Assembly (NCBI GenBank): GCA_029239785.1
Contig: JARBUG010000010.1
Location: 287-64,286 of the forward strand
Length of the DNA stretch: 64,000 nt
Direction of reading: 5' to 3'
From: Symbiobacteriaceae bacterium
GTDB lineage: Bacteria > Bacillota > Sulfobacillia > Symbiobacteriales > Symbiobacteriaceae
The notes beneath the pieces were generated by a model. The model made no database searches. It worked only from the letters and a program-made list of their open reading frames with translations, and was not told where the DNA came from. The position numbers and the translations under genes are program-made. Shown one piece after another: positions 3,898 to 40,862 of this stretch. Numbering within the stretch: the stretch's first letter is position 1; the number at the start of each line of letters is the position of its first letter.

Positions 3898-6495
3898 TTG
3901 GATAACCCCATCAAGACTGCAGGCGAGCACAGACTGAGCCGGCGCAGCTTCCTCGGTTGGAGTGCAGCAGCCACCGGCACGGCGGTTTTGCTTGGCAGCC
4001 AGACCGGGCTGATTCAGCTCGGCGACGGCACTGCCTCGGCAGCAGCTCCCGCCCAAGAAGGCAAATGGGTCTCGGCAGCCTGCTGGCACAACTGCGGCGG
4101 CAAGTGTCTCAACAAGGCCCTGGTTCGTGAAGGCGTGGTCATCCGGCAGAAGACCGATGATACCCACCCCGACAGCCCCGACACCCCGCAGCAGCGCGGC
4201 TGCGCCCGCGGCCGCTCCCAGCGGCAGCAGGTCCTGGGCGCCGACCGGCTCAAGTATCCGATGAAGCGGAAGAACTGGGCGCCGGGCGGCGGCAAGAAGG
4301 AACTGCGCGGCATCGACGAATGGGAGCGCATCTCCTGGGATGAGGCGCTCGACCTCGTCGCCGGCGAGCTGAAGCGGATCAAGGGCGAAGTCGGCAACAA
4401 GGGCTTCGTGATGCCGCGCATTAACTCCAAGCTGATGAACGCCTACGGCGGCGCCATGACCACCTGGGGCGTCGGCTCCGACGGCTCCTGGCCGCAGGTC
4501 GAACAGCAGATGACCGGCGGCTCGCTGCAGCAGAACGACCGCCTTGACTGGCGCAACGCCCGGCTGATCGTGCTGTGGGGTTCCAACCCCGCCTGGTCCA
4601 GCGCCGGCTCGCCCGCCTACAACCTGCTCCAGGCCAAGAAGGCCGGCGCCAAGATCATCTGCGTCGACCCGATGTATGGTGCCACGCACCAGATGCTGGC
4701 CGATGAGTGGATCCCCGTCCGCCCCGGCACCGATGCCGCTCTGCTGCTCGGCATGGCCCACCACATGATCACCGAGGGCCTGTACGACAAGGAGTTCATC
4801 AAGAAGTACACCGTCGGTTTCGATTATCTCTCCATGCCGTCGGGCACCGACTTCAAGGAGAACTTCAAGGACTACGTCCTCGGCACGCACGACAAGATGC
4901 CCAAGACGCCTGAGTGGGCCTCGGAGATCTGCGGCACCGACCCCGATGTGATTCGGCACTTCGCCACCGAGATCTGCTCGGTCAAGCCGATGATCTGGAC
5001 CTCCACCCCCGCCCCTGCCCGTACCCACCGGGGCGAGCAGTTCTGCCAGGCCTTCCTCACGGTCGGCTGGATGACCGGCAACGTCGGCATTTCGGGCGGC
5101 GGTGTCTGGAAGGCGTACCACTCTAACCAGTCCTACGGCTCCCGGACGCTGGTCTCCGCCGGCGGCACCGGTGCGGCTGGCGTGGCCAACCCGGTCTTCC
5201 CCTACGCCGGCTACGGCTTTGCCGACCCGGACAAGGACAACTGGTGGAGCCCGGCCTACGAGGAGCTGTATGACGCAATCCTCAAGGGGCAGTACCACCG
5301 CGGCGTCCATGGCATGGAAAAGTGCGATATTCGCGCCATCTACTCCATCCGGACCAGCGGCGGCGGCAACTTCTTGAACCAGTCGGCCAATATCAACAAG
5401 GGCATCGAGGCGATTCGCAAGGTCGAGTTCTTCGTCACCAGCGATATCGTTCTCTCCACTGTCTCCAAGTACGCCGATATCGTGCTGCCTGAGACCACCT
5501 GGTGGGAGAAGGTCGGCACGGTGGCCAGCGGCAACCCCGAGGCGATCGTTGTCAACAAGCAGGTGATCGAACCCCGGTTCGAAGCCCGCGATGGCGAGTG
5601 GATCGAACGGGAGCTGGCCAAGCGGCTGGGCCTCGATCCGCTGAAGGTTCATTCGGTGGATATGCAGCAGCAGTTCTTCAACCAGATCGCCGGCGCCAAG
5701 GTGATGAAGAAGGACGGCTCGGGCATGGAGCCCCTGGTCACCATCACAGATGCGGATATCGCCGCCATGAAGGCGACGGGCAAGCCCCAGCAGGGCCGGA
5801 TCAGCATGGCGGAGCTGCTCGAGCAGGGCGTCTACCAGGTGGAGCGGCGCGAAGGGGACAACTTTGGCTTTATCGCCATGAAGGCCTTCCGCGACGATCC
5901 TGTCAAGAACCCGCTCAAGACGAAGTCCGGCAAGCTGGAGATTCACTGCCAGTCGCTGGCGAACAAGATCGCCCAGTACGGCTTCAGCAAGTGCGCCCCC
6001 ATCGCCCAGTACACGCCGCCCGAAGAGGGCTACGAGACGACCTTTGCCGATTTCAAGGCGAAGAAGAAGGGCGAGTTCCCGCTCCAGCTCTTCACCATCC
6101 ACTACCCGCGGCGCTCGCACTCGACGTTTGACAACATCCGTCAGCTGCGTGAGGCCTTCCCGCAGGAGTTCTACATGAACCCGGCTGACGCCGCCGAGCG
6201 CGGCATCAAGGAAGGCGACACCGTCAAGATTACCTCGCCGCACGGCGCCGTGATCCGGCCGGTCTATCTGACCGAGCGGATTATGCCTGGCGTGGTCACG
6301 CTGCCCCAGGGCGCCTGGGTGGAGCGGGACGAGAAGACCCTGATTTGCAAGGCCGGCGCGACCAACGTGCTGAGCGGCACCCACCTGACCGGCCAGGGCG
6401 AAGAGCCGTGGAACACGGTCAACGTGCAGGTTGAGAAGTGGACCGGCGAGACCCTGGCTCCGGACGTCACCTGGCCGCAGCGGATTATGCTCTAA
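3898..6495 (+). CDS. Molybdopterin oxidoreductase catalytic subunit, DMSO-reductase family, Tat-exported (second paralog)
   Basis: The track ORF starts at 3667. The likely start is TTG 3898 (GGAGGTG 7-9 nt upstream), or ATG 3850. Tat motif SRRSFLGW and Cys cluster CWHNCGGKC. Confidence 0.9.
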   Translation: MDNPIKTAGEHRLSRRSFLGWSAAATGTAVLLGSQTGLIQLGDGTASAAAPAQEGKWVSAACWHNCGGKCLNKALVREGVVIRQKTDDTHPDSPDTPQQRGCARGRSQRQQVLGADRLKYPMKRKNWAPGGGKKELRGIDEWERISWDEALDLVAGELKRIKGEVGNKGFVMPRINSKLMNAYGGAMTTWGVGSDGSWPQVEQQMTGGSLQQNDRLDWRNARLIVLWGSNPAWSSAGSPAYNLLQAKKAGAKIICVDPMYGATHQMLADEWIPVRPGTDAALLLGMAHHMITEGLYDKEFIKKYTVGFDYLSMPSGTDFKENFKDYVLGTHDKMPKTPEWASEICGTDPDVIRHFATEICSVKPMIWTSTPAPARTHRGEQFCQAFLTVGWMTGNVGISGGGVWKAYHSNQSYGSRTLVSAGGTGAAGVANPVFPYAGYGFADPDKDNWWSPAYEELYDAILKGQYHRGVHGMEKCDIRAIYSIRTSGGGNFLNQSANINKGIEAIRKVEFFVTSDIVLSTVSKYADIVLPETTWWEKVGTVASGNPEAIVVNKQVIEPRFEARDGEWIERELAKRLGLDPLKVHSVDMQQQFFNQIAGAKVMKKDGSGMEPLVTITDADIAAMKATGKPQQGRISMAELLEQGVYQVERREGDNFGFIAMKAFRDDPVKNPLKTKSGKLEIHCQSLANKIAQYGFSKCAPIAQYTPPEEGYETTFADFKAKKKGEFPLQLFTIHYPRRSHSTFDNIRQLREAFPQEFYMNPADAAERGIKEGDTVKITSPHGAVIRPVYLTERIMPGVVTLPQGAWVERDEKTLICKAGATNVLSGTHLTGQGEEPWNTVNVQVEKWTGETLAPDVTWPQRIML

Positions 6496-31760: not shown

Positions 31761-32168
31761 TTATCCTCCAATCAAATAGAGCGATCCGTCGGTCAGGCGA
31801 TAGATGGTGGAACCAAGGGCGGCGATCTCCGGGTCGGCGGTGGCGAGGATGACGGTTCGGGCCACCGGTACGCTTTGGGTCATGGCGTGGGTGGGTTCGT
31901 CAAGCAGCAGCAGATCGGGCTGCAGGTCGTTGGTGGTGAGGCCGGTGATCAGGCGGCCTTCGTAGTACAGGTCGCCGTGTGTGGGCGGCTCCTGAAGTCC
32001 CAGAATCCGGAGCAGGGTGCTCTTGCCGGCGCCCGGGGCGCCCAGAATGGTGATGAAGTCGCCGGCGTAGATGCGGAGGTCGATGTTGCGCAGTGCCCAG
32101 ACGGGGTCGGGGCCGTCGGGGCGGTGGACCTTTGCGATGCGGCAAGCCTGCATGAGCAGCTTCCGCAT
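31761..32168 (-). CDS. Internally deleted mini-ABC ATPase (Walker A and Walker B retained; Q-loop, signature and most of the H-loop region missing)
   Basis: GAPGAGKSTLLRILG and LLLLDEPT lie only ~35 aa apart. There is no LSGGQ. The start is uncertain (ATG 32168 or 32153; the track gives 32198). Confidence 0.55.
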   Translation of the reverse strand: MRKLLMQACRIAKVHRPDGPDPVWALRNIDLRIYAGDFITILGAPGAGKSTLLRILGLQEPPTHGDLYYEGRLITGLTTNDLQPDLLLLDEPTHAMTQSVPVARTVILATADPEIAALGSTIYRLTDGSLYLIGG

Positions 32169-32176
32169 GGGCGGTT

Positions 32177-32248
32177 TCACCGGGCTGCCGGCGCCCACCC
32201 GTAGATGGCGGCCGGCAGAGTGGCGAGGTTGCCGATGATTGCTTTCAT
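32177..32248 (-). CDS. 23-aa peptide ORF MKAIIGNLATLPAAIYGWAPAAR
   Basis: GGAGG lies 9 nt before the ATG. It is the first ORF after the repeat-containing promoter. Below the ORF-track cut-off. Confidence 0.4.
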   Translation of the reverse strand: MKAIIGNLATLPAAIYGWAPAAR

Positions 32249-32322: not shown

Positions 32323-32357
32323 AAGAGAAAACCGCACCCATGTTCAGTGGGTGCGGT
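32320..32357 (-). terminator. Intrinsic terminator of the ABC-exporter operon
   Basis: ACCGCACCCA-cugaaca-UGGGUGCGGU followed by UUUCUCUUUUC. The stop codon lies in the loop. Confidence 0.75.
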
Positions 32358-34110
32358 CGCCCTCCAGGATGGCCCGGAACTCATCGGAAGCGGCCAGCAG
32401 CTGCGGGGCGGTACCGATCATCTCCACCCGCCCCTGGCTCATCAACAGAATCTGATCTGCCGCCTCCAGCACCGCCGGCCGGTGGGAGACCGCCAGGCAG
32501 GTTGTTTCTTTGCGCGCCCGCAGCCGCTCCCACAGTTTCTCCTCCGTCTCCTCATCCAGGGCACTGGAGAGATCATCAAAGACGAGCAGCTCCGGTTCCC
32601 GCACAAACATGCGGGCGGCGGCAGTTCGCTGCACCTGCCCGCCCGACAGCTTCACGCCCCGGGCGCCCACCTCGGTCTCCAGCCGTTTCTCCAGACCTGC
32701 CACATCCTGCTCCAGCACGGCGGCGTGCACGGCCCCGGCCAGATCAGCCTCCGCCTCGGGCAGCCCGAGCAGAATGTTCTCCTTCAGCGTGGCGCTGAAG
32801 AGCACAGGCACCTGCGGCGTGTAGCTGCTAATGGGCGGCTGGAAGAACGAACCCGGGTGGTCAACCACGCGGCCGTTCCAGTGCACCGCTCCACCCTGTG
32901 CGGGCAGCAGCCCCAGCAGCGCCCGCAGCAACGTGCTTTTCCCGGAGCCAACCCGGCCGGTGATCACCGTCAGCGTGCCGCGGGTGAGCGTGAACGTGGC
33001 CCCCCGGACGCCCCGCCCCGAGTCCGGGTACTCGTAGGTCAGGTCCTCCACCTCCAGCCGGTTCAGCCGCTCCTCCGGCTGAAGTGAGCGCCGGTGGCGC
33101 TCCGGCAGGGGAGTATCCAGATAGAGCGGGCTATGCGCCGCCAGGGCCACAGCCGGCGCATCCTCCAGCAACGCCTGCATCCGCCGTAAGGAGACACCCA
33201 TCTGCTTGTAACTGGCCAGCAGATCGCCTACGACGCCGGTAAACCCCGCCAGCCGCCCGACATAGGCCGCAAACAACGCAAAGTCGCCCACAGTAAAGGT
33301 GCCGGACCGCATCGATCCCGCCGCCAGCAACAGTACCAGGCCCGTGCCCAGGTTGGCGGTGTTCAGATAGACCGACCGGAGCAGCTCGGTGAACAGGCTG
33401 TCCTGCACGGCATGGGCCCGCCGCTGGTCTCCCAGACGGCGCAGGTGGCCGGCCACGTTCGCCTCGGCGCCGGCCAGCTTCAGCGCGGGCACCATGGTGA
33501 AAATCTCGCCGAGCATCCCCGTCACCCGGGCGGCGGCGGTCCGGCTCCGGTCGCGGTACCGGCCGATTCGCTGTCCCGCAGCCTTTGCCACAATCATCAC
33601 CCCGACGAGGGGCAGCACGGCCGCAACCGTCACAAACGCGTTGATATGTAGCATGAGCCCCAGCGTGACGCCTGCGCTCAAGGCCTCGGCGACGGCGCTG
33701 ATCACTGTGATCATCGAAGCGAACAGCGCTACGGCGTCGGCATCGTCGCGAAAGCGGCTGATCGCATCGCCGGTCGACCCGGGCAGGGCCCGGGCGCCGG
33801 GCCGGCGCAGGATCTGCTCCAGCATATTGGTAGTGAGCAGTGCGCTGACCGTAAAGCGCTGGAGCACACTGACGGGCACGCTGAGCCAGGTAACCAGCAG
33901 GCGCCCGCTCTGCACGGCGACGGGCAGCACGGCCAACAGCCAGAGGCTGTCTAGAGCCGGTGCGCTGCCCGACAGGGCATTGAAGAAGGACCGGGCCACC
34001 AGACCGAGCCCGGTCGGCGTCAGGGAGATCAGCACCCAACTGAGAAAGCAGGCGGCCACCAGCCAGGGCCGGTATGCCAGCAGGCGGAGCACAGTTCGCC
34101 ACGGTTTCAT
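32344..34110 (-). CDS. ABC exporter, fused TMD-NBD subunit
   Basis: 588 aa. GRVGSGKSTLL, LSGGQVQR and LLVFDDLSSALD, with an N-terminal 6-TM domain. Confidence 0.9.
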   Translation of the reverse strand: MKPWRTVLRLLAYRPWLVAACFLSWVLISLTPTGLGLVARSFFNALSGSAPALDSLWLLAVLPVAVQSGRLLVTWLSVPVSVLQRFTVSALLTTNMLEQILRRPGARALPGSTGDAISRFRDDADAVALFASMITVISAVAEALSAGVTLGLMLHINAFVTVAAVLPLVGVMIVAKAAGQRIGRYRDRSRTAAARVTGMLGEIFTMVPALKLAGAEANVAGHLRRLGDQRRAHAVQDSLFTELLRSVYLNTANLGTGLVLLLAAGSMRSGTFTVGDFALFAAYVGRLAGFTGVVGDLLASYKQMGVSLRRMQALLEDAPAVALAAHSPLYLDTPLPERHRRSLQPEERLNRLEVEDLTYEYPDSGRGVRGATFTLTRGTLTVITGRVGSGKSTLLRALLGLLPAQGGAVHWNGRVVDHPGSFFQPPISSYTPQVPVLFSATLKENILLGLPEAEADLAGAVHAAVLEQDVAGLEKRLETEVGARGVKLSGGQVQRTAAARMFVREPELLVFDDLSSALDEETEEKLWERLRARKETTCLAVSHRPAVLEAADQILLMSQGRVEMIGTAPQLLAASDEFRAILEGDRTH

Positions 34111-35777
34111 CCTGCCACCACCTCCTCCGGGCCGGACTGGAGCGACAGGACCTGCCCGGCACGCCGCAGTGTCGACAGCCTGTGGGCAATAAGGATCGCT
34201 GTCCGGCCCAGGAGGAGCCGGTCGATGGCCTGCTCCAGCCGCTGTTCGGTAACGGGGTCGAGCCGGGAGGAGGCCTCATCCAAAATGACGAGGCCCGGAT
34301 CTTTCAGGAAGACACGTGCGAAGGCGAGCAGCTGGGCCTCGCCCGCCGAGAGGCCGCCGCCAGATGCCAGCTCGGTATCGAGGCCGTTAGGAAGGGAGGC
34401 CGCCCACTCCCGCAGGCCCAGCTCATCGAGTGCCGCCCAGATGCGGCTGTCGGCGACGGTGGCATCGAACAGGGTCAGGTTGTCGCGCAGAGTGCCGCGG
34501 AAGATCTGCACTTCCTGGGTCACCACGCCCACCCGCCGGCGCAGGTCGGCGAGGCGGACCGAGCGCACATCGACGCCACCGAGGCGGATGCTGCCGCCGA
34601 CCGGGTCATAAAGGCGTGCCACCAGCCGGGCAAGGGTCGATTTGCCGATGCCGGTCCGCCCCCGCACGCCCAGCACCTCGCCGGGCTTCAGGGCAAAGGA
34701 GAGGTTCTCGAGCACGGGCACCCCGGGGATATATCCAAATGTCAGGCGGTCGACTGCGAGGGCCAGCGGCCCGTCGGGCAGCGGCGCCCCCTCCCCGTGC
34801 ACCGCCAGAGTGCTGCGCATGGCCAGCAGGTCGCCAATCCGGCTGATGCTGGCGCCGGCCCGGGCCAGGTCCTGCATCTGTTGGACGATCTGTTCGGTGG
34901 GACGCCGGAGTTGCTCCGTATAAAAGAAGATCATGTAAGCAGTGCCGACCGAAATGGCGCCCGCCCGTACCAGCGCAAGCCCGACGCCAAAGGCCGTGGA
35001 CGTGCCCACCGCCAGCAGCCCGAAGGAGACGACCAGCATGATGGCCATGCCGCGGCCGGCCTTCAGCTCGGCCTGCAGCCGGGTGCGAAGTGCCTGTACA
35101 AAGCCCAGTCGGACAGCGTGCTCGGCGCCGTTGGCCCGAATCTCCTCCAGCCCCGCCAGCCGTTCGCCCAAATAGCCGAAGAACTGGCTGCTGGCCTGCC
35201 GGGACGCCTGCCAGCCGGGCATGGCGCTGTGCCGGGTGCGCAGCAGCACCGTCAGGTGAAGCGCGGCGAAGCCCGACAGTGCCAGACCCGCCCGCCAGTC
35301 CACCGTGTAGAGAACTGCCAGGACGCCGGCCAGCAGGAGTGCGTTGGCGGCCACCTGCACCACGAAGGCGGAGAAGAAGTTGGCCAGCGGGGTCACGTCG
35401 CCATCGATGCGTTCGATCATTTCGCCGGCGGTGCGGTCCTTGTGATAGGAGAGATCGAGTCCCAGGAGATGCTCGGTCAGCTCGGCGCGCAGTTCGTTGG
35501 TCGCCCGCCAGCCGATCTCCTGACCGAGATACGTGGCCCACAGCGCCAGCAGTTGGTTGGCGATGGCCAGACCCAGGAAGAGCGCTGCCAGGGCGAGCAG
35601 GCGCAGGCCCGGCGTACCGGCCCCCGCCTGGTCAATAAACCGCTGGAGAACCGTGGGATAGTAAAGTTGCAGCCCGATGCCAGTCAGCAGCAAAATTCCC
35701 AGCAGCAGTACTTTCGGCCCCTGCGGCCGCAGGTATCGGCGCAGCAGGCGCCAGTATTGGGTCAGGGGGATCGACAT
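34107..35777 (-). CDS. ABC exporter, fused TMD-NBD subunit (heterodimer partner)
   Basis: 556 aa. GRTGIGKSTL, LSAGEAQL and LVILDEASSRLD. ATGA overlap with the downstream partner. Confidence 0.9.
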   Translation of the reverse strand: MSIPLTQYWRLLRRYLRPQGPKVLLLGILLLTGIGLQLYYPTVLQRFIDQAGAGTPGLRLLALAALFLGLAIANQLLALWATYLGQEIGWRATNELRAELTEHLLGLDLSYHKDRTAGEMIERIDGDVTPLANFFSAFVVQVAANALLLAGVLAVLYTVDWRAGLALSGFAALHLTVLLRTRHSAMPGWQASRQASSQFFGYLGERLAGLEEIRANGAEHAVRLGFVQALRTRLQAELKAGRGMAIMLVVSFGLLAVGTSTAFGVGLALVRAGAISVGTAYMIFFYTEQLRRPTEQIVQQMQDLARAGASISRIGDLLAMRSTLAVHGEGAPLPDGPLALAVDRLTFGYIPGVPVLENLSFALKPGEVLGVRGRTGIGKSTLARLVARLYDPVGGSIRLGGVDVRSVRLADLRRRVGVVTQEVQIFRGTLRDNLTLFDATVADSRIWAALDELGLREWAASLPNGLDTELASGGGLSAGEAQLLAFARVFLKDPGLVILDEASSRLDPVTEQRLEQAIDRLLLGRTAILIAHRLSTLRRAGQVLSLQSGPEEVVAG

Positions 35778-35789
35778 GGCCGGTTCCTC

Positions 35790-36821
35790 CTAACGGGCGG
35801 GGTGCGGTTCCTCGCCAGGGCCATCCAGAATGCGGCGGGCCGCTTCGATCCCATCGGCCGGGGCCACCCATTCGCCCGGCTGCCTGACCCATGGTTCAGT
35901 CACATAGAAGGGCTGCTTGAGAAAGGCCTCCAGGCGCTCGCCCCGCCGGTAGGTCAGCACTTCGGCGTCGGGAATGCGCTCGATGCCGCGCACCCGGGCC
36001 AGGGCGTGCAGTTCCCGGTACCGCCGGTAGAGCCTGCGGGCCCGCTGCTGGAGCGTCATGTGCGTCTGGTCGGCGTAGGCCCCTTCGAGGATGATCGATG
36101 TGGAGCCAACCGGGTCGATGGCCGGGAAGACGCTCCGGGCCGCCAGGTCGGCATCGAAACGCCAGAGTGTCTCCAGGGGGCCGTAGGGAACCTCTTCATC
36201 CGGCGACTCGCCGCGGGGGTCGACCAGTGCGAAGGTGACCGCATGGCCCGCCCCCCCGGCGAGGCGGGCACGGAGTTCGTCCAACTCCCCGGAAAGGACC
36301 ATCGCCCGGTCGGTCGCCACGAGGACTTCTCTGTCTTTCTGCCAGGCCTTGACCTGTTCTTCCGCCGCCGCCAGGGAATGGGCCACCACCTCTGCTTCGG
36401 GGAGGACGTCCTGAAGGTCAGGATGAAACTCGGCGGGCAGCCAGAGCACCGTGCCATACCCACGCTGGCGGAGCCGGTGGAGCAACTCGGAGAGCACGAC
36501 CATCTGGCCCATGCCTGTGCGGGCGACCAACCCGACGGTGCCCCCCCGCACCAGTGGTGCGAACAGGTCGATCACTTTGATGCCCGTCTCGACCATGGTG
36601 GAACCGGGCCCCCGTATCACCAGGTCGTCCAGCGTGCACCCGGCCAAATCGGCCAACGCGACCAGGGTTCGGACTTCGGCACGCCCGAGCGGAATCTTGC
36701 CGTTGCACAGGTCGGAGACGGTTGCGGAACGCAGGCCCACACTGCGGGCGGCCACCGTCAGGTTCGGGACCAGGCGCCGCAACAGTTGTACGTTGAGTTG
36801 CAGGTCATCAGCCAAGACCAA
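35790..36821 (-). CDS. XRE-type HTH fused to a degenerate F1-ATPase beta-subunit-like domain
   Basis: HTH: SVGLRSATVSDLCNGKIPLGRAEVRTLVALADLAG. Beta-like blocks: ETGIKVIDLFAPLVRGGTVGLVARTGMGQM (P-loop GGAGVGKT lost), SVFPAIDPVGSTS and FLKQPFYVTEPW. Start is probably TTG 36821 or 36815. Confidence 0.75.
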   Translation of the reverse strand: MVLADDLQLNVQLLRRLVPNLTVAARSVGLRSATVSDLCNGKIPLGRAEVRTLVALADLAGCTLDDLVIRGPGSTMVETGIKVIDLFAPLVRGGTVGLVARTGMGQMVVLSELLHRLRQRGYGTVLWLPAEFHPDLQDVLPEAEVVAHSLAAAEEQVKAWQKDREVLVATDRAMVLSGELDELRARLAGGAGHAVTFALVDPRGESPDEEVPYGPLETLWRFDADLAARSVFPAIDPVGSTSIILEGAYADQTHMTLQQRARRLYRRYRELHALARVRGIERIPDAEVLTYRRGERLEAFLKQPFYVTEPWVRQPGEWVAPADGIEAARRILDGPGEEPHPAR

Positions 36822-36848
36822 CCCCCCCTTTCCTCTGTAGCGTAACTC

Positions 36849-36858
36849 AACGTACGTT
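36849..36858. promoter_or_regulatory. Perfect 10-bp palindrome AACGTACGTT (candidate operator)
   Basis: It lies between TTGCAT (-35-like) and TACGCT (-10-like), upstream of the HTH-beta gene. Confidence 0.3.
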
Positions 36859-36897
36859 ACAATGCAATCCCATTGAAAGACATAGCTGCTATGCGCG

Positions 36898-36924
36898 AAA
36901 AAGACCGCCGGAATGCCGGCGGCC
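36898..36924 (-). terminator. Intrinsic terminator after the STAND-SARP gene
   Basis: GGCCGCCGG-cauu-CCGGCGGUC followed by UUUUU. Confidence 0.7.
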
Positions 36925-36938
36925 CTCGTCACGGCCTG

Positions 36939-39683
36939 CTAGTCCAGCAGCCGTCGGTAGAGTTCCTGGGTGCGGGGGCCGGGTTCGAGGCCCAGTTCAT
37001 CGTCGAGCAGGCGGGCGATGGTGCGGTATTGCTGGAGCGCCGCACTCCGATTGCCCAGGGCGGCGTAGGCGGTCATGAGGCCGAGGTGTGCTTCTTCATC
37101 CAACGGGTCGACTTGCAGCAGGAGTTGCAGCGCTTGGGCGGCGTCAGCGTGGCGGGCGGCGGCGGCGCAGTGGACAGCGATTTGGCGCAGGGTCTGCTGG
37201 TAGAGCAGGCGGGCGCGGGCACGGGGCGCCGCTGCCCATGGGTAGTCGAGTCCTTCGGCCAGGTCGCCGCGGTATAGGTCGGCCGCCTTTCGCCAGTCGG
37301 TTTCCGCTTCGGCAGCAGCGAGTTGTTCAAACTGCTCAATGTCAACCGTCAGGTTGGTGCGCTCCATGCGGTAGGCTCCGCCGGCGAAGGTGACCAGCCC
37401 CTCGCCCGGGGCGCCCAGGGTGGAGCGGAGGTTGTAAAGCGTGGTGTGGAGCAGGGTGCGGGCGGCGTCGAAGTCGAGGTCGGGCCAGAGGGCTTCGATC
37501 ACCTGGTCGCGGGGGATGGGGCGGCTGCCCTGCAGCACGAAGTAGGCGAGCAGGTCCCTTGCCTTGGTGGTGCGCCACCGGGGCAGGGGGCGCCCGCCGA
37601 TGGTGACGGTGATGGGGCCCAGCAGGGAGACGGTCAGGCGCGGGGTGGTGCTTTCAGCAGCAGATGCGGAGCCGGGGGCTGGGGTTGTGGCTGCGGCCCC
37701 GGCTCCGGCGGGCTCGGCGGTTGCTGCGGCGGGTGTTGCCCGCAGCAGGGCCTGATAGGCCAGGAGCGCAGCGTCCCTCACCGCAGGGTCATCATCATGC
37801 AACAGGCTGCGGACCGCCTCCGTCGCCGCTTCCCCTCCGGTTACGGACAACGGATAGAGTGCAGCCTGCCGAGCCCGGGGCTCTGGCTGACGGGTCATCT
37901 CCAGGAGCGCCGGCAGCGCCCGCCCACCCATCCGGATGAGTAACTCCTGGCAGAACGGTGCCTCCACGCCCCGAGCCAGGGCGTCCGCAATCAGCCCCGC
38001 CGCCGCCACACGGGGAGCGACCAGGTGCTGCAGATACCCTTCGGCCGCGGCGTATCCCAGCGCCCTGTCAAACGAGCGCCGGGCCTCATCCAACTTGCCT
38101 TCGGCCCAGGCCTTGCGGGCAAAGAGCGTCAGTAGATAATGCAGATAGAAGTTCGCTTCGATCGATGAATGATAGGCAAACGAGGCGACGAGCAGGCGCT
38201 CGGCCGCAGCGTGGTCGCCCCAGGCGACCAGCGCAGCCGCCAACACCATGCCGGTGCAGGCTTCCAGAAAGCGGAACCGGCCACGGGCGGTTCCATAGGC
38301 CGCTTCGGCCAGGCGCCGGAAGGTGGGCATATCGCCGCGGGTCGCCGCCACCAGCGCCCGCTGGCAGGTGGCGGTGATGCCGATGGGCAGGTTGGCCGAG
38401 AAAGTCTGGTGGAGACGCTCGGCCTCGCTTAGGTGCTCCTCTGCCTCCTCAAGGCGGCCCCGGTCCAGAGAGACCTCTCCATAGGTCAGGTGGGCCATGG
38501 CCAGGGCGGTCAGGTCGCCCCGGTTTGCCCGGGCCTCCAGGCAGCGGCGGGCCAGGGCCTCCGCCTCGTCGAGGCGTCCCTGATCGCGCAGGAGGATGAC
38601 TTTGCTGTGGGCGCCCGCCAGTTCGAGCATGGGGTCGATCTCAAACGCCTGCCGATACCACTCCGTAGCGAGCGCGTACTGCCCCAGCACGACGCTGATC
38701 TCCCCCAAGAGCATGGCGGCTGCGGCCATGACGGGCCGGTCGCCGCGGCCCCGGGCGGCGTCCCATACGACGGTGGCCCGCTCGCGGGCCGCGGGCGGGT
38801 GGTCGCAGTAGAGCATGTGAATCTCGCCCAACTCGGTCCAGAGTTGCTCGGCGCCAGGCTGTCCCACGGAGAACTGGTGGGCGAAGGCTGTGAGGCTGAG
38901 GTTGCCGGCGAGCCATTCGCCCACCAGGCTCTTGGCAATTTCGGTGGGGACGTGGCCGGGCAGTTCGGCCAGCATCCGGGAGGTGATAGCTGGCCGCCAG
39001 CCGGCGCCGTGCTGGCGCCAGAGGTCCAGGGCCAGGGGGAAGCCGCCCGTTTTGGTCCAGCACTCTTCCCAGTCGGACTGGGCGCCCAGGAGCGCCGACG
39101 CCTCCTGCCGCGTGAAGGCCAGGTCGGCTGCCAGCAGGGTGCGGCAGTCGGCGCCCGGGTCGACGGGAAGGGGCGCCCGGGTGCTGAGGAGAAGGTGGAG
39201 TTCAGGCGGGGCGTAGCGGAGGAGTAAGGTCAGGAAGTCGGCGAGCCAGGGCTGGCCGAAGGCGGCCTCCAGGCCGTCGAGGGCGAGGATGATGGGGGGG
39301 CGGACGGCGGCCTCGGCGACGAGGTCGGCGGCGAGGTCGGCCACCGGGGCCGGGGCCACCGGGGCCGGGGCCACCGGGGCCGGGGCGCCGACCTCGGGCA
39401 CTGCCCAGTCCGGCCAAACCCGTGCGAACGCCGCACCCAGATGCACGACCAGGGCGCCCCCGCCCTCCCTGTCCTGCGCATCCAGCCGGTAGTAAACGAA
39501 GGGCAGCCCAGTGGCAGGCAACCACTGGGCCAGGAATGCGGTCTTCCCTGCGCCGGCCGGCGCTTGCAGCAGCAGCGCCCGGGGCGGGGCGCCGACGGCA
39601 TCGAGCAGCCGCGGCCGAGGGAGATACCCTGCGCAAGATGGGAGCATCAGCTTGGTGCGAAAGATCCGCTGCACGACGTTCAC
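36939..39683 (-). CDS. MalT-like STAND ATPase - TPR - HEAT - C-terminal SARP (OmpR-type wHTH + BTAD) regulator
   Basis: N-terminus RTKLMLPS..PRPRLL..LLLQAPAGAGKTAFLAQW. HEAT-like LLHDDDPAVRDAALLAY. C-terminus LLGPITVTIGGRPLP..KARDLLAYFVL..LYRGDLAEGL..AHLGLMTAYAALGNRSAALQQY (SARP/BTAD hallmarks). Confidence 0.8.
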   Translation of the reverse strand: MNVVQRIFRTKLMLPSCAGYLPRPRLLDAVGAPPRALLLQAPAGAGKTAFLAQWLPATGLPFVYYRLDAQDREGGGALVVHLGAAFARVWPDWAVPEVGAPAPVAPAPVAPAPVADLAADLVAEAAVRPPIILALDGLEAAFGQPWLADFLTLLLRYAPPELHLLLSTRAPLPVDPGADCRTLLAADLAFTRQEASALLGAQSDWEECWTKTGGFPLALDLWRQHGAGWRPAITSRMLAELPGHVPTEIAKSLVGEWLAGNLSLTAFAHQFSVGQPGAEQLWTELGEIHMLYCDHPPAARERATVVWDAARGRGDRPVMAAAAMLLGEISVVLGQYALATEWYRQAFEIDPMLELAGAHSKVILLRDQGRLDEAEALARRCLEARANRGDLTALAMAHLTYGEVSLDRGRLEEAEEHLSEAERLHQTFSANLPIGITATCQRALVAATRGDMPTFRRLAEAAYGTARGRFRFLEACTGMVLAAALVAWGDHAAAERLLVASFAYHSSIEANFYLHYLLTLFARKAWAEGKLDEARRSFDRALGYAAAEGYLQHLVAPRVAAAGLIADALARGVEAPFCQELLIRMGGRALPALLEMTRQPEPRARQAALYPLSVTGGEAATEAVRSLLHDDDPAVRDAALLAYQALLRATPAAATAEPAGAGAAATTPAPGSASAAESTTPRLTVSLLGPITVTIGGRPLPRWRTTKARDLLAYFVLQGSRPIPRDQVIEALWPDLDFDAARTLLHTTLYNLRSTLGAPGEGLVTFAGGAYRMERTNLTVDIEQFEQLAAAEAETDWRKAADLYRGDLAEGLDYPWAAAPRARARLLYQQTLRQIAVHCAAAARHADAAQALQLLLQVDPLDEEAHLGLMTAYAALGNRSAALQQYRTIARLLDDELGLEPGPRTQELYRRLLD
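39341..39385. repeat. 3 x 15-bp in-frame tandem repeat (APAPV x3) inside the regulator gene
   Basis: CCACCGGGGCCGGGG repeated three times. Confidence 0.9.
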
Positions 39684-39994: not shown

Positions 39995-40498
39995 CTACAT
40001 CTGCCCCGTCGTAATCTGGATCACCTGGGTCTGGGCCACCACAGCCTGCGCCACCGCATTCACGACCGATTGGATATCGGCCAAGAGCTGCTGTGCAGCC
40101 GCCAAGCCAACGGCGACGGCGCCGCCCATCGCCTGGGCTTGCGTCAGGAGTTGCTGCACGGCACGCAAGGTCGCATTCAGGCTGGCCCGCGCCTGCGCCA
40201 GCACGTTGGCAATTTGCATCTGCCGGGCCCGCACCCGAATATCGATGTCACCCCGGATGCGCACCATCGCCTGCTGCATCTGCCGGACCCGGGCCTGCAC
40301 CACGGCCTCCGCAGCCTGCTGGACCTGTAGGGAGATCGCCTGCAACTGCTGCGCTGAGAGCGCAACGTTGGACTGCCCCGCGGCCTGGGCAGCGGCAATC
40401 GCCTGCTGAAGGGCCTGGACGGTCAGGGAGAGGCTGCTCTGCGCCTGGGCGAGAAGCGCGACCACCTGCATCTGCGTGATGTTGATGTTGAGGTTCAT
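39995..40498 (-). CDS. 167-aa Gln/Ala-rich protein with an internal duplication, unknown function
   Basis: ATG 40498 after AAAGGAGG. MNLNINITQMQVVALLAQAQSSLSLTVQALQQ... Two ~55-aa repeats flank RVRQMQQAMVRIRGDIDIRVRARQMQ. No Lys, Cys, aromatic or Pro residues. Confidence 0.65.
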   Translation of the reverse strand: MNLNINITQMQVVALLAQAQSSLSLTVQALQQAIAAAQAAGQSNVALSAQQLQAISLQVQQAAEAVVQARVRQMQQAMVRIRGDIDIRVRARQMQIANVLAQARASLNATLRAVQQLLTQAQAMGGAVAVGLAAAQQLLADIQSVVNAVAQAVVAQTQVIQITTGQM

Positions 40499-40616
40499 GG
40501 CAGCCGGGCCTCCTTTCAAGGCATGATGGAGCCCGTCCGTATCAGCATATGTGCAACCTGAGGGTTCGGCCCCCATACAGAAAAGCGCCCACCTGCCTAA
40601 TGCAGGTGGACGCTTC

Positions 40617-40862
40617 GACGGTCCGTTTTTCTGTGGCGCTGGCGGAGGGCTCTCCGTCTGTCTTGATCGATTGCAGGAGGAATCGGTTGAAAGAAATGGA
40701 CGGAGACGGCGCATGGCAGACGGTCATCAGCAAGATTAGCCGATTTTCGACCCGTTTTTGGAGCGATTTCTACTCCACCAGTGCCCCGTCAGCCCGGGCG
40801 ACGCCGTGCTCCGTCTCTCTTTTTCGGTGAGCACCGGGGCCAGCCAAAAGAAACGGACGGAG
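40617..40862. repeat. Cluster of CCGTCYGT...ACGGACGG hairpins (same repeat family flavour)
   Basis: CTCCGTCTGTCTTGATCGATT / AATCGGTTGAAAGAAATGGACGGAG and CTCCGTCTCTCTTTTTCGG / CCAAAAGAAACGGACGGAG, plus GACGGTCCGTTTTTCTGT. Confidence 0.6.

Follow-up and report, generated by a model that had tools for sequence, protein, structure and literature searches.

A widespread family of helix-turn-helix proteins with a degenerate F1-ATPase beta-like module and a conserved inverted-repeat array at its own promoter

The DNA analyzed here, referred to as the window, is a stretch of 64,000 nucleotides from contig JARBUG010000010.1 of the Symbiobacteriaceae bacterium assembly GCA_029239785.1. It includes a gene whose product, called here the HTH-beta protein, joins an N-terminal helix-turn-helix (HTH) domain to a shortened relative of the beta subunit of F1Fo-ATP synthase (beta). 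A domain for DNA binding and a putative input domain lie together in a single cytoplasmic polypeptide, an architecture kept at full length across about 400 species of spore-forming Bacillota. With moderate confidence, we propose that the protein acts as a one-component, autoregulated repressor in which a beta-derived module without catalytic activity serves in sensing or oligomerization. Among the most conserved enzymes is ATP synthase beta, and every one of its non-synthase paralogues known to us (FliI/SctN, the Mycoplasma F1-like motors and, more distantly, Rho) is an active motor. If the proposal is correct, a widespread beta paralogue devoid of catalytic motifs and equipped with a DNA-binding head would represent a new evolutionary fate for this fold, and bacterial one-component regulators would gain an input domain of a novel type.

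A word-index search identified a database protein (P0001) that is 100% identical to the window regulator, as well as more than 120 clusters of full-length homologues, 341–370 amino acids long, with 54–84% identity. The names of their sources include Symbiobacteriaceae, Paenibacillus, Alicyclobacillus, Fredinandcohnia, Evansella, Caldalkalibacillus and Ureibacillus. When one genome per species was scanned, relatives were detected in at least 396 species genomes, and the best 80 of the 396 were all from Bacillota. The mean column identity among 30 orthologues was 65% over the whole protein, which is high for a regulator. The first-pass annotation of the window, made from the nucleotide sequence without database searches, had presented the HTH and beta-like parts as a single gene; recurrence of the full-length fusion as a single open reading frame (ORF) in at least 396 genomes bears this out and rules out a sequencing or joining artifact. 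Homologues are labeled "hypothetical protein", [quoted passage not shown], "helix-turn-helix domain-containing protein" or "P-loop NTPase family protein". Neither Pfam nor NCBIfam has a model dedicated to the HTH-beta family, and a full-text literature search did not find the architecture described, in agreement with the earlier suggestion of an undescribed regulator class. As an HTH one-component regulator the protein is of an ordinary kind; it is the F1-beta-derived pseudo-ATPase input module that was not found described.

The possibility that this is a defense, phage or plasmid gene was also considered and discarded. The PADLOC and PHROGs models did not match the family, and a single member was located on a megaplasmid, an 897-kb plasmid of Paenibacillus. 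The remaining plasmid and phage matches were of lower identity or partial, and they were mostly annotated as atpD or located in unannotated records. Listeria monocytogenes records (H3, H4, H11–H14) contain a beta homologue that aligns continuously to residues 76–338 of the query with 25% identity and is annotated as atpD in one record.

Sequence and structural comparisons support the identification of the part of the protein that follows the HTH as the nucleotide-binding and C-terminal domains of F1 beta. Pfam searches of the window protein matched ATP-synt_ab at residues 80–126 (E 3.6e-8) and ATP-synt_VA_C at residues 250–308. The best NCBIfam match was atpD (TIGR01039), with an E-value of 2.6e-29 and 102.3 bits, a score below the equivalog cut-off of 462.85. 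When the PDB was searched with phmmer, F1 beta chains were the top matches (E 2.3e-29). The alignments consist of two blocks, with query residues 75–123 corresponding to beta 128–176 and query residues 178–338 to beta 283–447. They reproduced the pairing with canonical beta of the motifs ETGIKVIDLFAPLVRGG, FPAIDPVGSTS and FLKQPFYVTEP, which had been read from the translation alone, and the C-terminal domain motif QPFYV(A/T)EP(F/W) corresponds to QPFxVAExFTG in beta. An AlphaFold2 (AF2) model built on 30 orthologues had a mean predicted local distance difference test (pLDDT) value of 80 and a predicted TM-score (pTM) of 0.73. The full model matched F1 beta structures in Foldseek with an E-value of 2.7e-18 and query TM-scores (TMq) of 0.62–0.66. 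The phmmer and Foldseek results together confirmed the F1-beta homology of both domains that the first-pass annotation had claimed.

To compare motifs, the 30 orthologues were aligned and then set against full-length beta sequences with canonical motifs. The Walker A region of the family reads A-R-(P/T)-G-M-G-Q-(L/M), with invariant G105 and Q106, and the Lys and Thr of the canonical motif are present in 0 of 30 orthologues. The GERxREG position is variable across the family. Two earlier readings of the window protein, a P-loop ARTGMGQM without Lys and a replaced catalytic GERTREG region, are supported by the alignment. Compared with canonical beta, about 25 amino acids are deleted between the GERxREG region and Walker B, and about 24 more right after the Walker-B Asp, where beta has the segment NxFRFxQAGSEVSALLGRxPSxVGYQPTL. 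The YVPADDxTDPA motif of beta is substituted and most of the DELSEED loop is lost. The elements kept from beta are ETGIKVxDLxAPxxxGG, PAxDPxxSTS and, in the C-terminal domain, QPF(Y/F)VAEx(F/W/Y)T, the motif of the adenine pocket. A Walker-B-like Asp171 is also retained, and it is followed by an invariant Arg172. Taken together, the substitutions and deletions strongly suggest that the beta-like module is catalytically dead.

The modeling results support an XRE/Cro-C1-type HTH at the N-terminus, with a five-helix lambda-repressor-like fold. The Pfam model HTH_26 matched residues 25–69 of the window protein with an E-value of 5.9e-4 and 20.5 bits, against a gathering cut-off of 22, and it was found in 26 of 30 family members at E ≤ 0.01 (best E 9.4e-5). 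The AF2 model of residues 1–76 consists of five helices between two short strands (mean pLDDT 76). Its top Foldseek matches were CylR2, P22 c2, 434, lambda cI, HipB, DdrO and ImmR, with target TM-scores (TMt) of 0.78 or lower and all E-values above 0.001; the HTH-bearing enzymes HppE and HEPD, and also EspR, were in the same list. When the HTH sequence alone was compared to the PDB, the only matches were marginal ones to HigA over the turn and the recognition helix. The HTH is the most conserved part of the family, with a mean column identity of 79% versus 65% for the whole protein. The XRE-like HTH of about 70 amino acids that had been proposed earlier is thus sustained by the HTH_26 and Foldseek matches. 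So is its location in place of the N-terminal barrel of the beta subunit: residues 1–70 are the HTH, and no Pfam match to the crown beta-barrel (PF02874) was found in the window protein.

The aligned regions upstream of the family genes have in common a TTGC(N)T separated by 17 nt from TAC(T/G)(A/C)T, and then a short leader with the sequence AAGTAA(C)AGGAGG. The sequence GTAA.{6}TTAC was found 73 times in the 10.4 kb upstream of the family genes, at 58 of 80 loci, and 13 times in the remaining ~1 Mb. These numbers correspond to densities of 7.02 and 0.013 per kb, an enrichment of approximately 540-fold, and spacings other than N6 were not enriched in the family upstream DNA. A position weight matrix (PWM) scan produced 207 matches at the family's own promoters and 74 weaker ones elsewhere in ~1.2 Mb. 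In 73 aligned promoters, the half-sites keep fixed offsets, counted from the start of the −35 (Table 1); they alternate in orientation and are spaced 10–12 bp apart over ~70 bp, on one face of the helix. Promoters from Bacilli carry 6–7 half-sites, about one every 11 bp, and the high-GC Symbiobacteriaceae promoters carry a single operator. Both the HTH and the half-sites are near-invariant across one phylogenetic span. In the window, the element reads TTGCAT-tgtaac-GTAC-gttgag-TTAC-GCT...GGAA.

The regulator gene starts with a TTG located directly after the purine-rich AGGAAAGGGGGGG. There are two in-frame TTG candidates within 36813–36821, at 36821 and 36815. The start is uncertain by two codons because the TTG at 36815 yields a protein beginning with MADDLQLNV that is 341 amino acids long, as are the nearest homologues; the called 343-amino acid form may be two codons too long. 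The leader is predicted to be ~20 nt long, and a comparison with Rfam produced no match near significance.

Two other repeats in this region were evaluated and rejected. A 10-bp palindrome, AACGTACGTT, had been reported in the promoter. It is indeed present at 36849–36858, where it overlaps the operator O1, but it has no significance on its own, since 31 of 100 shuffled sequences contained one or more matches with at most one mismatch, and it is not conserved. GTA(A/C)-N6-TTAC replaces it as the candidate operator. In addition, the 14-mer GTACGTTGAGTT(A/G)C occurs twice, in inverted orientation, at 36788–36801 and 36842–36855, with the centers 54 bp apart. The first of these, GTACGTTGAGTTGC, is an O2-like copy located within the coding sequence. 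The 12-nt perfect inverted repeat that spans the start codon was reached in 76 of 2000 shuffles (p ~0.04) and the O2-like copy is absent in the relatives L010 and L011 and was not seen in the two closest genome relatives, so the repeat was not retained as a second operator or a hairpin.

Outside the proximal operator, most of the Bacillaceae loci among L010–L089 have a second full GTAA(A)5-6TTAC(G/T)CT-N5-A(G/C)GTAA unit ~45 bp upstream, with spacers rich in A-tracts, and the whole Bacillaceae array may be intrinsically bent DNA. The best operator-like site away from family promoters is TAGTAAATTAGATTACTC, at 6225–6242 of L004 from Alkalihalobacillus sp. AL-G, which scores well on both strands. 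This site is 35 bp upstream of a divergent, unannotated 562-amino acid gene, ~1.8 kb from the family gene. The 562-amino acid gene is a possible regulon member.

Table 1. Features of the HTH-beta gene and its surroundings in the window, half-sites of the family promoters, and examples of related beta-like modules
Feature	Position	Strand	Basis or remarks
HTH-beta-like regulator gene	35790..36821	-	ORF call and translation, 343 amino acids
N-terminal XRE/Cro-C1-type HTH, residues 1–70	36612..36821	-	HTH_26, AF2 and Foldseek
Shortened F1-beta-like nucleotide-binding domain, residues ~75–245	36087..36599	-	PDB phmmer, Foldseek, deletions relative to canonical beta
Degenerate P-loop A100-R-T-G-M-G-Q-M107 replacing GGAGVGKT (Lys to Gln, Thr to Met)	36501..36524	-	Alignments
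F1-beta-like C-terminal helical domain, residues ~246–338	35808..36086	-	Pfam, NCBIfam, phmmer, alignment
Shine-Dalgarno region AGGAAAGGGGGGG	36822..36834	-	Orthologues keep AAGTAA(C)AGGAGG at equal place
Third half-site GGAA (GTAA in 65/73 promoters)	36830..36833	-	Expected transcription start just before the Shine-Dalgarno region
Putative −10 TACGCT, 17 nt after the −35	36839..36844	-	Homology to conserved family promoter
Operator O1 GTAC-gttgag-TTAC, in the spacer, overlapping the −10	36842..36855	-	Window version of GTAA-N6-TTAC
Putative −35 TTGCAT	36862..36867	-	Homology to conserved family promoter
O2-like copy GTACGTTGAGTTGC, 13/14 identical to O1, inverted	36788..36801	+	Codons 7–11 (LQLNV)
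Hairpin and T-run after the upstream SARP-like gene	36894..36933	-	Insulates the regulator promoter region
ABC exporter half-transporter 1 (transmembrane and ATPase domains)	34107..35777	-	ORF, Pfam, NCBIfam
ABC exporter half-transporter 2	32344..34110	-	ORF, Pfam, NCBIfam; 4-nt overlap with half-transporter 1
Terminator-like hairpin and T-run ending the three-gene operon	32330..32358	-	Follows the two ABC genes
Half-site GTAA	offset −33		26/73 promoters
Half-site TTAC	offset −23		41/73 promoters
Half-site GTAA	offset −11		29/73 promoters
TTGC	offset 0		The −35 itself
Half-site G.AA	offset +12		G in 97% of promoters; exact GTAA in 45/73
Half-site TTAC	offset +22		63/73 promoters
Half-site GTAA	offset +34		65/73 promoters
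Sigma-ankyrin/beta-like example	L090 2-2186
Sigma-ankyrin/beta-like example	L091 3614-5901
Sigma-ankyrin/beta-like example proteins P0152, P0156, P0170, P0193, P0200

The arrangement of the promoter suggests a mode of action for the HTH-beta protein. Judging from its conservation, the 14-bp GTA(A/C)-N6-TTAC would be bound by a dimer of the XRE-type HTH. Since this operator is located in the spacer and covers the −10 and the transcription start, the bound protein would block RNA polymerase. The beta-like module, without the Walker-A Lys and Thr, GERxREG and the post-Walker-B switch segment, would be unable to hydrolyze ATP. It would most likely hold HTH dimers together in a higher-order oligomer, an assembly that is proposed because the phased arrays of 6–7 half-sites in Bacilli promoters would fit it. 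The remnant of the beta catalytic pocket would probably bind a small effector that changes the affinity for DNA. The most plausible effector would be an adenine-containing molecule, a suggestion to which we attach low confidence because all residues related to phosphate, Mg and catalysis have been lost. In this Symbiobacteriaceae lineage, the same promoter is expected to drive two translationally coupled ATP-binding cassette (ABC) exporter genes, which would place the exporter under control of the regulator. The proposal can be taken further, to shortened, mostly non-catalytic F1-beta-derived modules, carried by XRE HTH proteins of Bacillota and ECF sigma-ankyrin proteins of Chloroflexota, being an unrecognized input or oligomerization class of transcription proteins whose HTH form is a ring or trimer of dimers that wraps ~70 bp and senses adenine nucleotides or the energy state; we regard this extension as rather unlikely.

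Several observations weigh against the proposed autoregulated repressor. The regular expression and PWM scans of the ~1.2 Mb of fetched loci and the window found essentially the sites at the gene's own promoters and no further regulon. The strong conservation of the protein is not explained by autoregulation alone, because no regulon was seen in the ~1 Mb of flanking DNA. The window has only one full operator, with the degenerate half-sites GTAC and GGAA, and its TTGCAT and TACGCT match 3 of 6 consensus positions each. A generic sigma-70 scan found no promoter in the region upstream of the window regulator, and for this reason the promoter assignment rests on homology to the family. The conserved upstream motif could be bound by a different factor. 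With respect to the proposed assembly, the alternating orientation of the half-sites does not fit a simple C6 ring. With respect to the effector, the family has Leu, Met or Phe where beta has its adenine-stacking Tyr, and nucleotide binding appears far from assured given that the phosphate- and Mg-binding residues are all lost.

Other explanations can be built on the same data. The module could be a strict energy-state sensor that binds ATP or ADP without hydrolysis, so that their ratio sets how strongly the gene itself and the exporter, which consumes ATP, are repressed. In its favor, the module keeps the fold and the C-terminal motif of the adenine pocket, G103, G105, the Walker-B-like Asp171 and Arg172 vary little or not at all, and GxGK is kept in some of the sister modules described below. 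However, the family as a whole has lost both Walker-A residues (Lys and Thr), the catalytic Glu and Arg, the Tyr that stacks on adenine and the switch segment, and most genomes have no energy-related gene nearby. We consider such a sensor unlikely. A Rho-like ring or trimer of dimers, in which the HTH crown of a hexamer binds three tandem 14-bp operators ~22.5 bp apart and wraps ~70 bp of DNA, would account for the half-sites at −33, −23, −11, 0 (TTGC), +12, +22 and +34, 10–12 bp apart on one helix face, and for the HTH taking the position of the F1 beta crown domain. This assembly is nonetheless quite improbable: the alternation of the sites conflicts with C6 symmetry, Symbiobacteriaceae promoters, that of the window included, carry one operator, and a ring may be unable to form without the crown barrel and the lost interface segments.

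The module could also act as a mimic of beta that docks on free ATP-synthase alpha, gamma or epsilon and couples F1 assembly or abundance to transcription. The protein is nearer to true beta than to any other F1-like ATPase, and the surface motifs ETGIKVxDLxAP, PAxDPxxSTS and QPFxVAE are unusually well preserved. Mimicry seems very unlikely, however, in a protein that is missing the crown beta-barrel, which helps hold alpha3beta3 together, as well as ~50 core residues and most of the DELSEED loop, and whose gene was never beside atp genes in the neighborhoods examined. Finally, the HTH-like domain could mediate protein contacts rather than bind DNA, and the upstream array could serve an unrelated factor. 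HTH_26 does score just under the Pfam gathering threshold, and the PDB sequence matches to XRE proteins are weak (E ~0.5). Set against this are the best structural matches, which are XRE/Cro-type HTH domains, and an upstream motif that hardly occurs outside the gene's own promoter and whose conservation covers the same phylogenetic range as that of the HTH; we give this explanation hardly any credence. The autoregulated repressor is the reading that we prefer.

The HTH-beta protein was compared with known systems that resemble it in whole or in part. With F1Fo beta (AtpD, TIGR01039; PF00006 and PF22919), it shares the fold and also sequence homology at the start of the nucleotide-binding domain, the last strands and the whole C-terminal helical domain. 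In contrast to AtpD, it has no barrel, no Walker-A Lys and Thr and no GERxREG, ~50 residues are deleted, the gene is outside the atp operon, and an HTH is present. With the XRE/Cro-C1 repressors (phage 434, P22 c2, CylR2; HTH_26/HTH_3), it shares the five-helix fold, with flanking strands as in CylR2, and a putative 14-bp inverted-repeat operator with N6 that overlaps its own promoter. In its geometry, GTA(A/C)-N6-TTAC equals the operator of phage 434, ACAA-N6-TTGT. Unlike those repressors, the HTH-beta protein has an F1-beta-derived C-terminal partner instead of a small dimerization, peptidase or cupin domain, and its half-site array is unusually long in Bacilli (~70 bp). 

Rho has a nucleic-acid-binding N-terminal domain before an F1-like RecA-fold domain, in the place of the crown domain. 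It differs in that it works as a hexamer that actively translocates RNA, with its Walker motifs intact and an OB fold for RNA binding, and in that it lacks a C-terminal domain of the beta type, whereas the HTH-beta protein matches AtpD best, has a degenerate Walker A, and carries an HTH of the double-stranded DNA type as its nucleic acid domain. No Rho families or chains were among the listed Pfam, NCBIfam and PDB matches. NrdR joins a DNA-binding module to an ATP-cone, a nucleotide-type domain without catalytic activity, and acts at tandem promoter operators; the concept is shared, but the folds are unrelated and nucleotide binding by the HTH-beta protein is only putative. Other F1-like ATPases (the beta-like Mycoplasma MMOB1670 / MSC_0618, FliI/SctN) are beta paralogues in other roles and gave weak matches here. 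They are active, work with partner alpha-like subunits and have no HTH, and the HTH-beta protein scores far below their cut-offs. A further parallel is found in extracytoplasmic function (ECF) sigma factors with C-terminal extensions from Chloroflexota, in which a transcription protein is joined to a beta-like module. Their recognition unit is a sigma factor, whereas that of the HTH-beta protein is an HTH.

These ECF proteins were found through a profile search of 1.84 billion representative proteins, which recovered the shortened beta-like module in other proteins as one continuous stretch. Some are fusions of 545–780 amino acids composed of an ECF sigma factor and the beta-like module, in most cases together with ankyrin repeats (Table 1). 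Others are "mini-beta" proteins of ~360 amino acids that keep only the tail of the barrel (PVGxxxLGR...); the two mini-beta genes examined (2/2) are immediately downstream of ECF sigma-ankyrin genes. A search with a fusion as the query resulted in 918 clusters at E ≤ 1e-30, a number that includes sigma-ankyrin proteins without the module. Full fusions were frequent among the 120 listed, and their source names were few: Chloroflexi, Caldilineaceae, Anaerolineales and Ktedonobacteraceae. The Chloroflexota fusions and mini-betas, which number hundreds of clusters, are annotated only as sigma-70 family factors or ATPase beta. The sister modules share with the HTH family the 24-amino acid deletion after Walker B, and the Walker-A Lys (GxGK) is kept in some of them and lost in others. 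The terms "ATP synth", "ATPase" and "ankyrin" are absent from the main text of the 2021 paper that re-classified the ECF sigma factors (PMC7826278). Pairing of a beta-derived module with transcription proteins on at least two occasions supports a regulatory rather than a bioenergetic role, and the Chloroflexota ECF sigma-ankyrin-beta-like proteins suggest a general principle and not a single oddity.

In the window, the regulator gene is the first of an operon with an ABC exporter pair, as the first-pass annotation had reported. There are 12 nt between the regulator stop codon and half-transporter 1, and the Shine-Dalgarno sequence of half-transporter 1 overlaps that stop codon. The operon stands as described in this genome, but it does not extend beyond the closest Symbiobacteriaceae relatives. 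The regulator-ABC-ABC layout was also found in the two closest genome relatives (L005 and L009, with 77% and 73% identity), and it is absent in a 66%-identical Symbiobacteriaceae metagenome-assembled genome and in the Alicyclobacillus, Paenibacillus and Alkalihalobacillus sp. genomes. ORF clustering over 80 loci showed that any neighbor is common to 19 loci at most, reflecting local synteny, and a family-wide pairing with the exporter or another neighbor was discarded. Because the layout is limited to those relatives and no neighbor exceeds 19 of 80 loci, the exporter link is clade-specific and cannot define the function of the family. In most genomes the HTH-beta gene stands alone, and no atp genes were found in any neighborhood examined. 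The family is testable, with a sharply defined operator and promoter and members in cultivable Paenibacillus, Lysinibacillus and Virgibacillus species, and the Symbiobacteriaceae exporter operon would be a built-in reporter for the regulator.

Three other genes around the operon were inspected, all of them on the reverse strand. Upstream, at 36939–39683, a 914-amino acid regulator has the parts of a Streptomyces antibiotic regulatory protein (SARP) in an unusual order: a MalT/AAA_16-like NTPase, MalT-type TPR, HEAT repeats, an OmpR-type winged helix (Trans_reg_C) and a C-terminal BTAD. This SARP-like neighbor is not kept beside the HTH-beta gene in relatives. At 39995–40714, a 239-amino acid ORF without a Pfam match encodes a long helical, repeat-like sequence rich in Gln, Ala and Val, QALQQAIAAAQAAGQ. 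Just downstream of the exporter operon, at 31761–32198, a 145-amino acid ORF matches only positions 1–50 of the ABC_tran profile, and in it an LLLLDEPT-type Walker B comes almost immediately after Walker A. This ORF is probably a remnant or an internally deleted version of an ABC ATPase gene.

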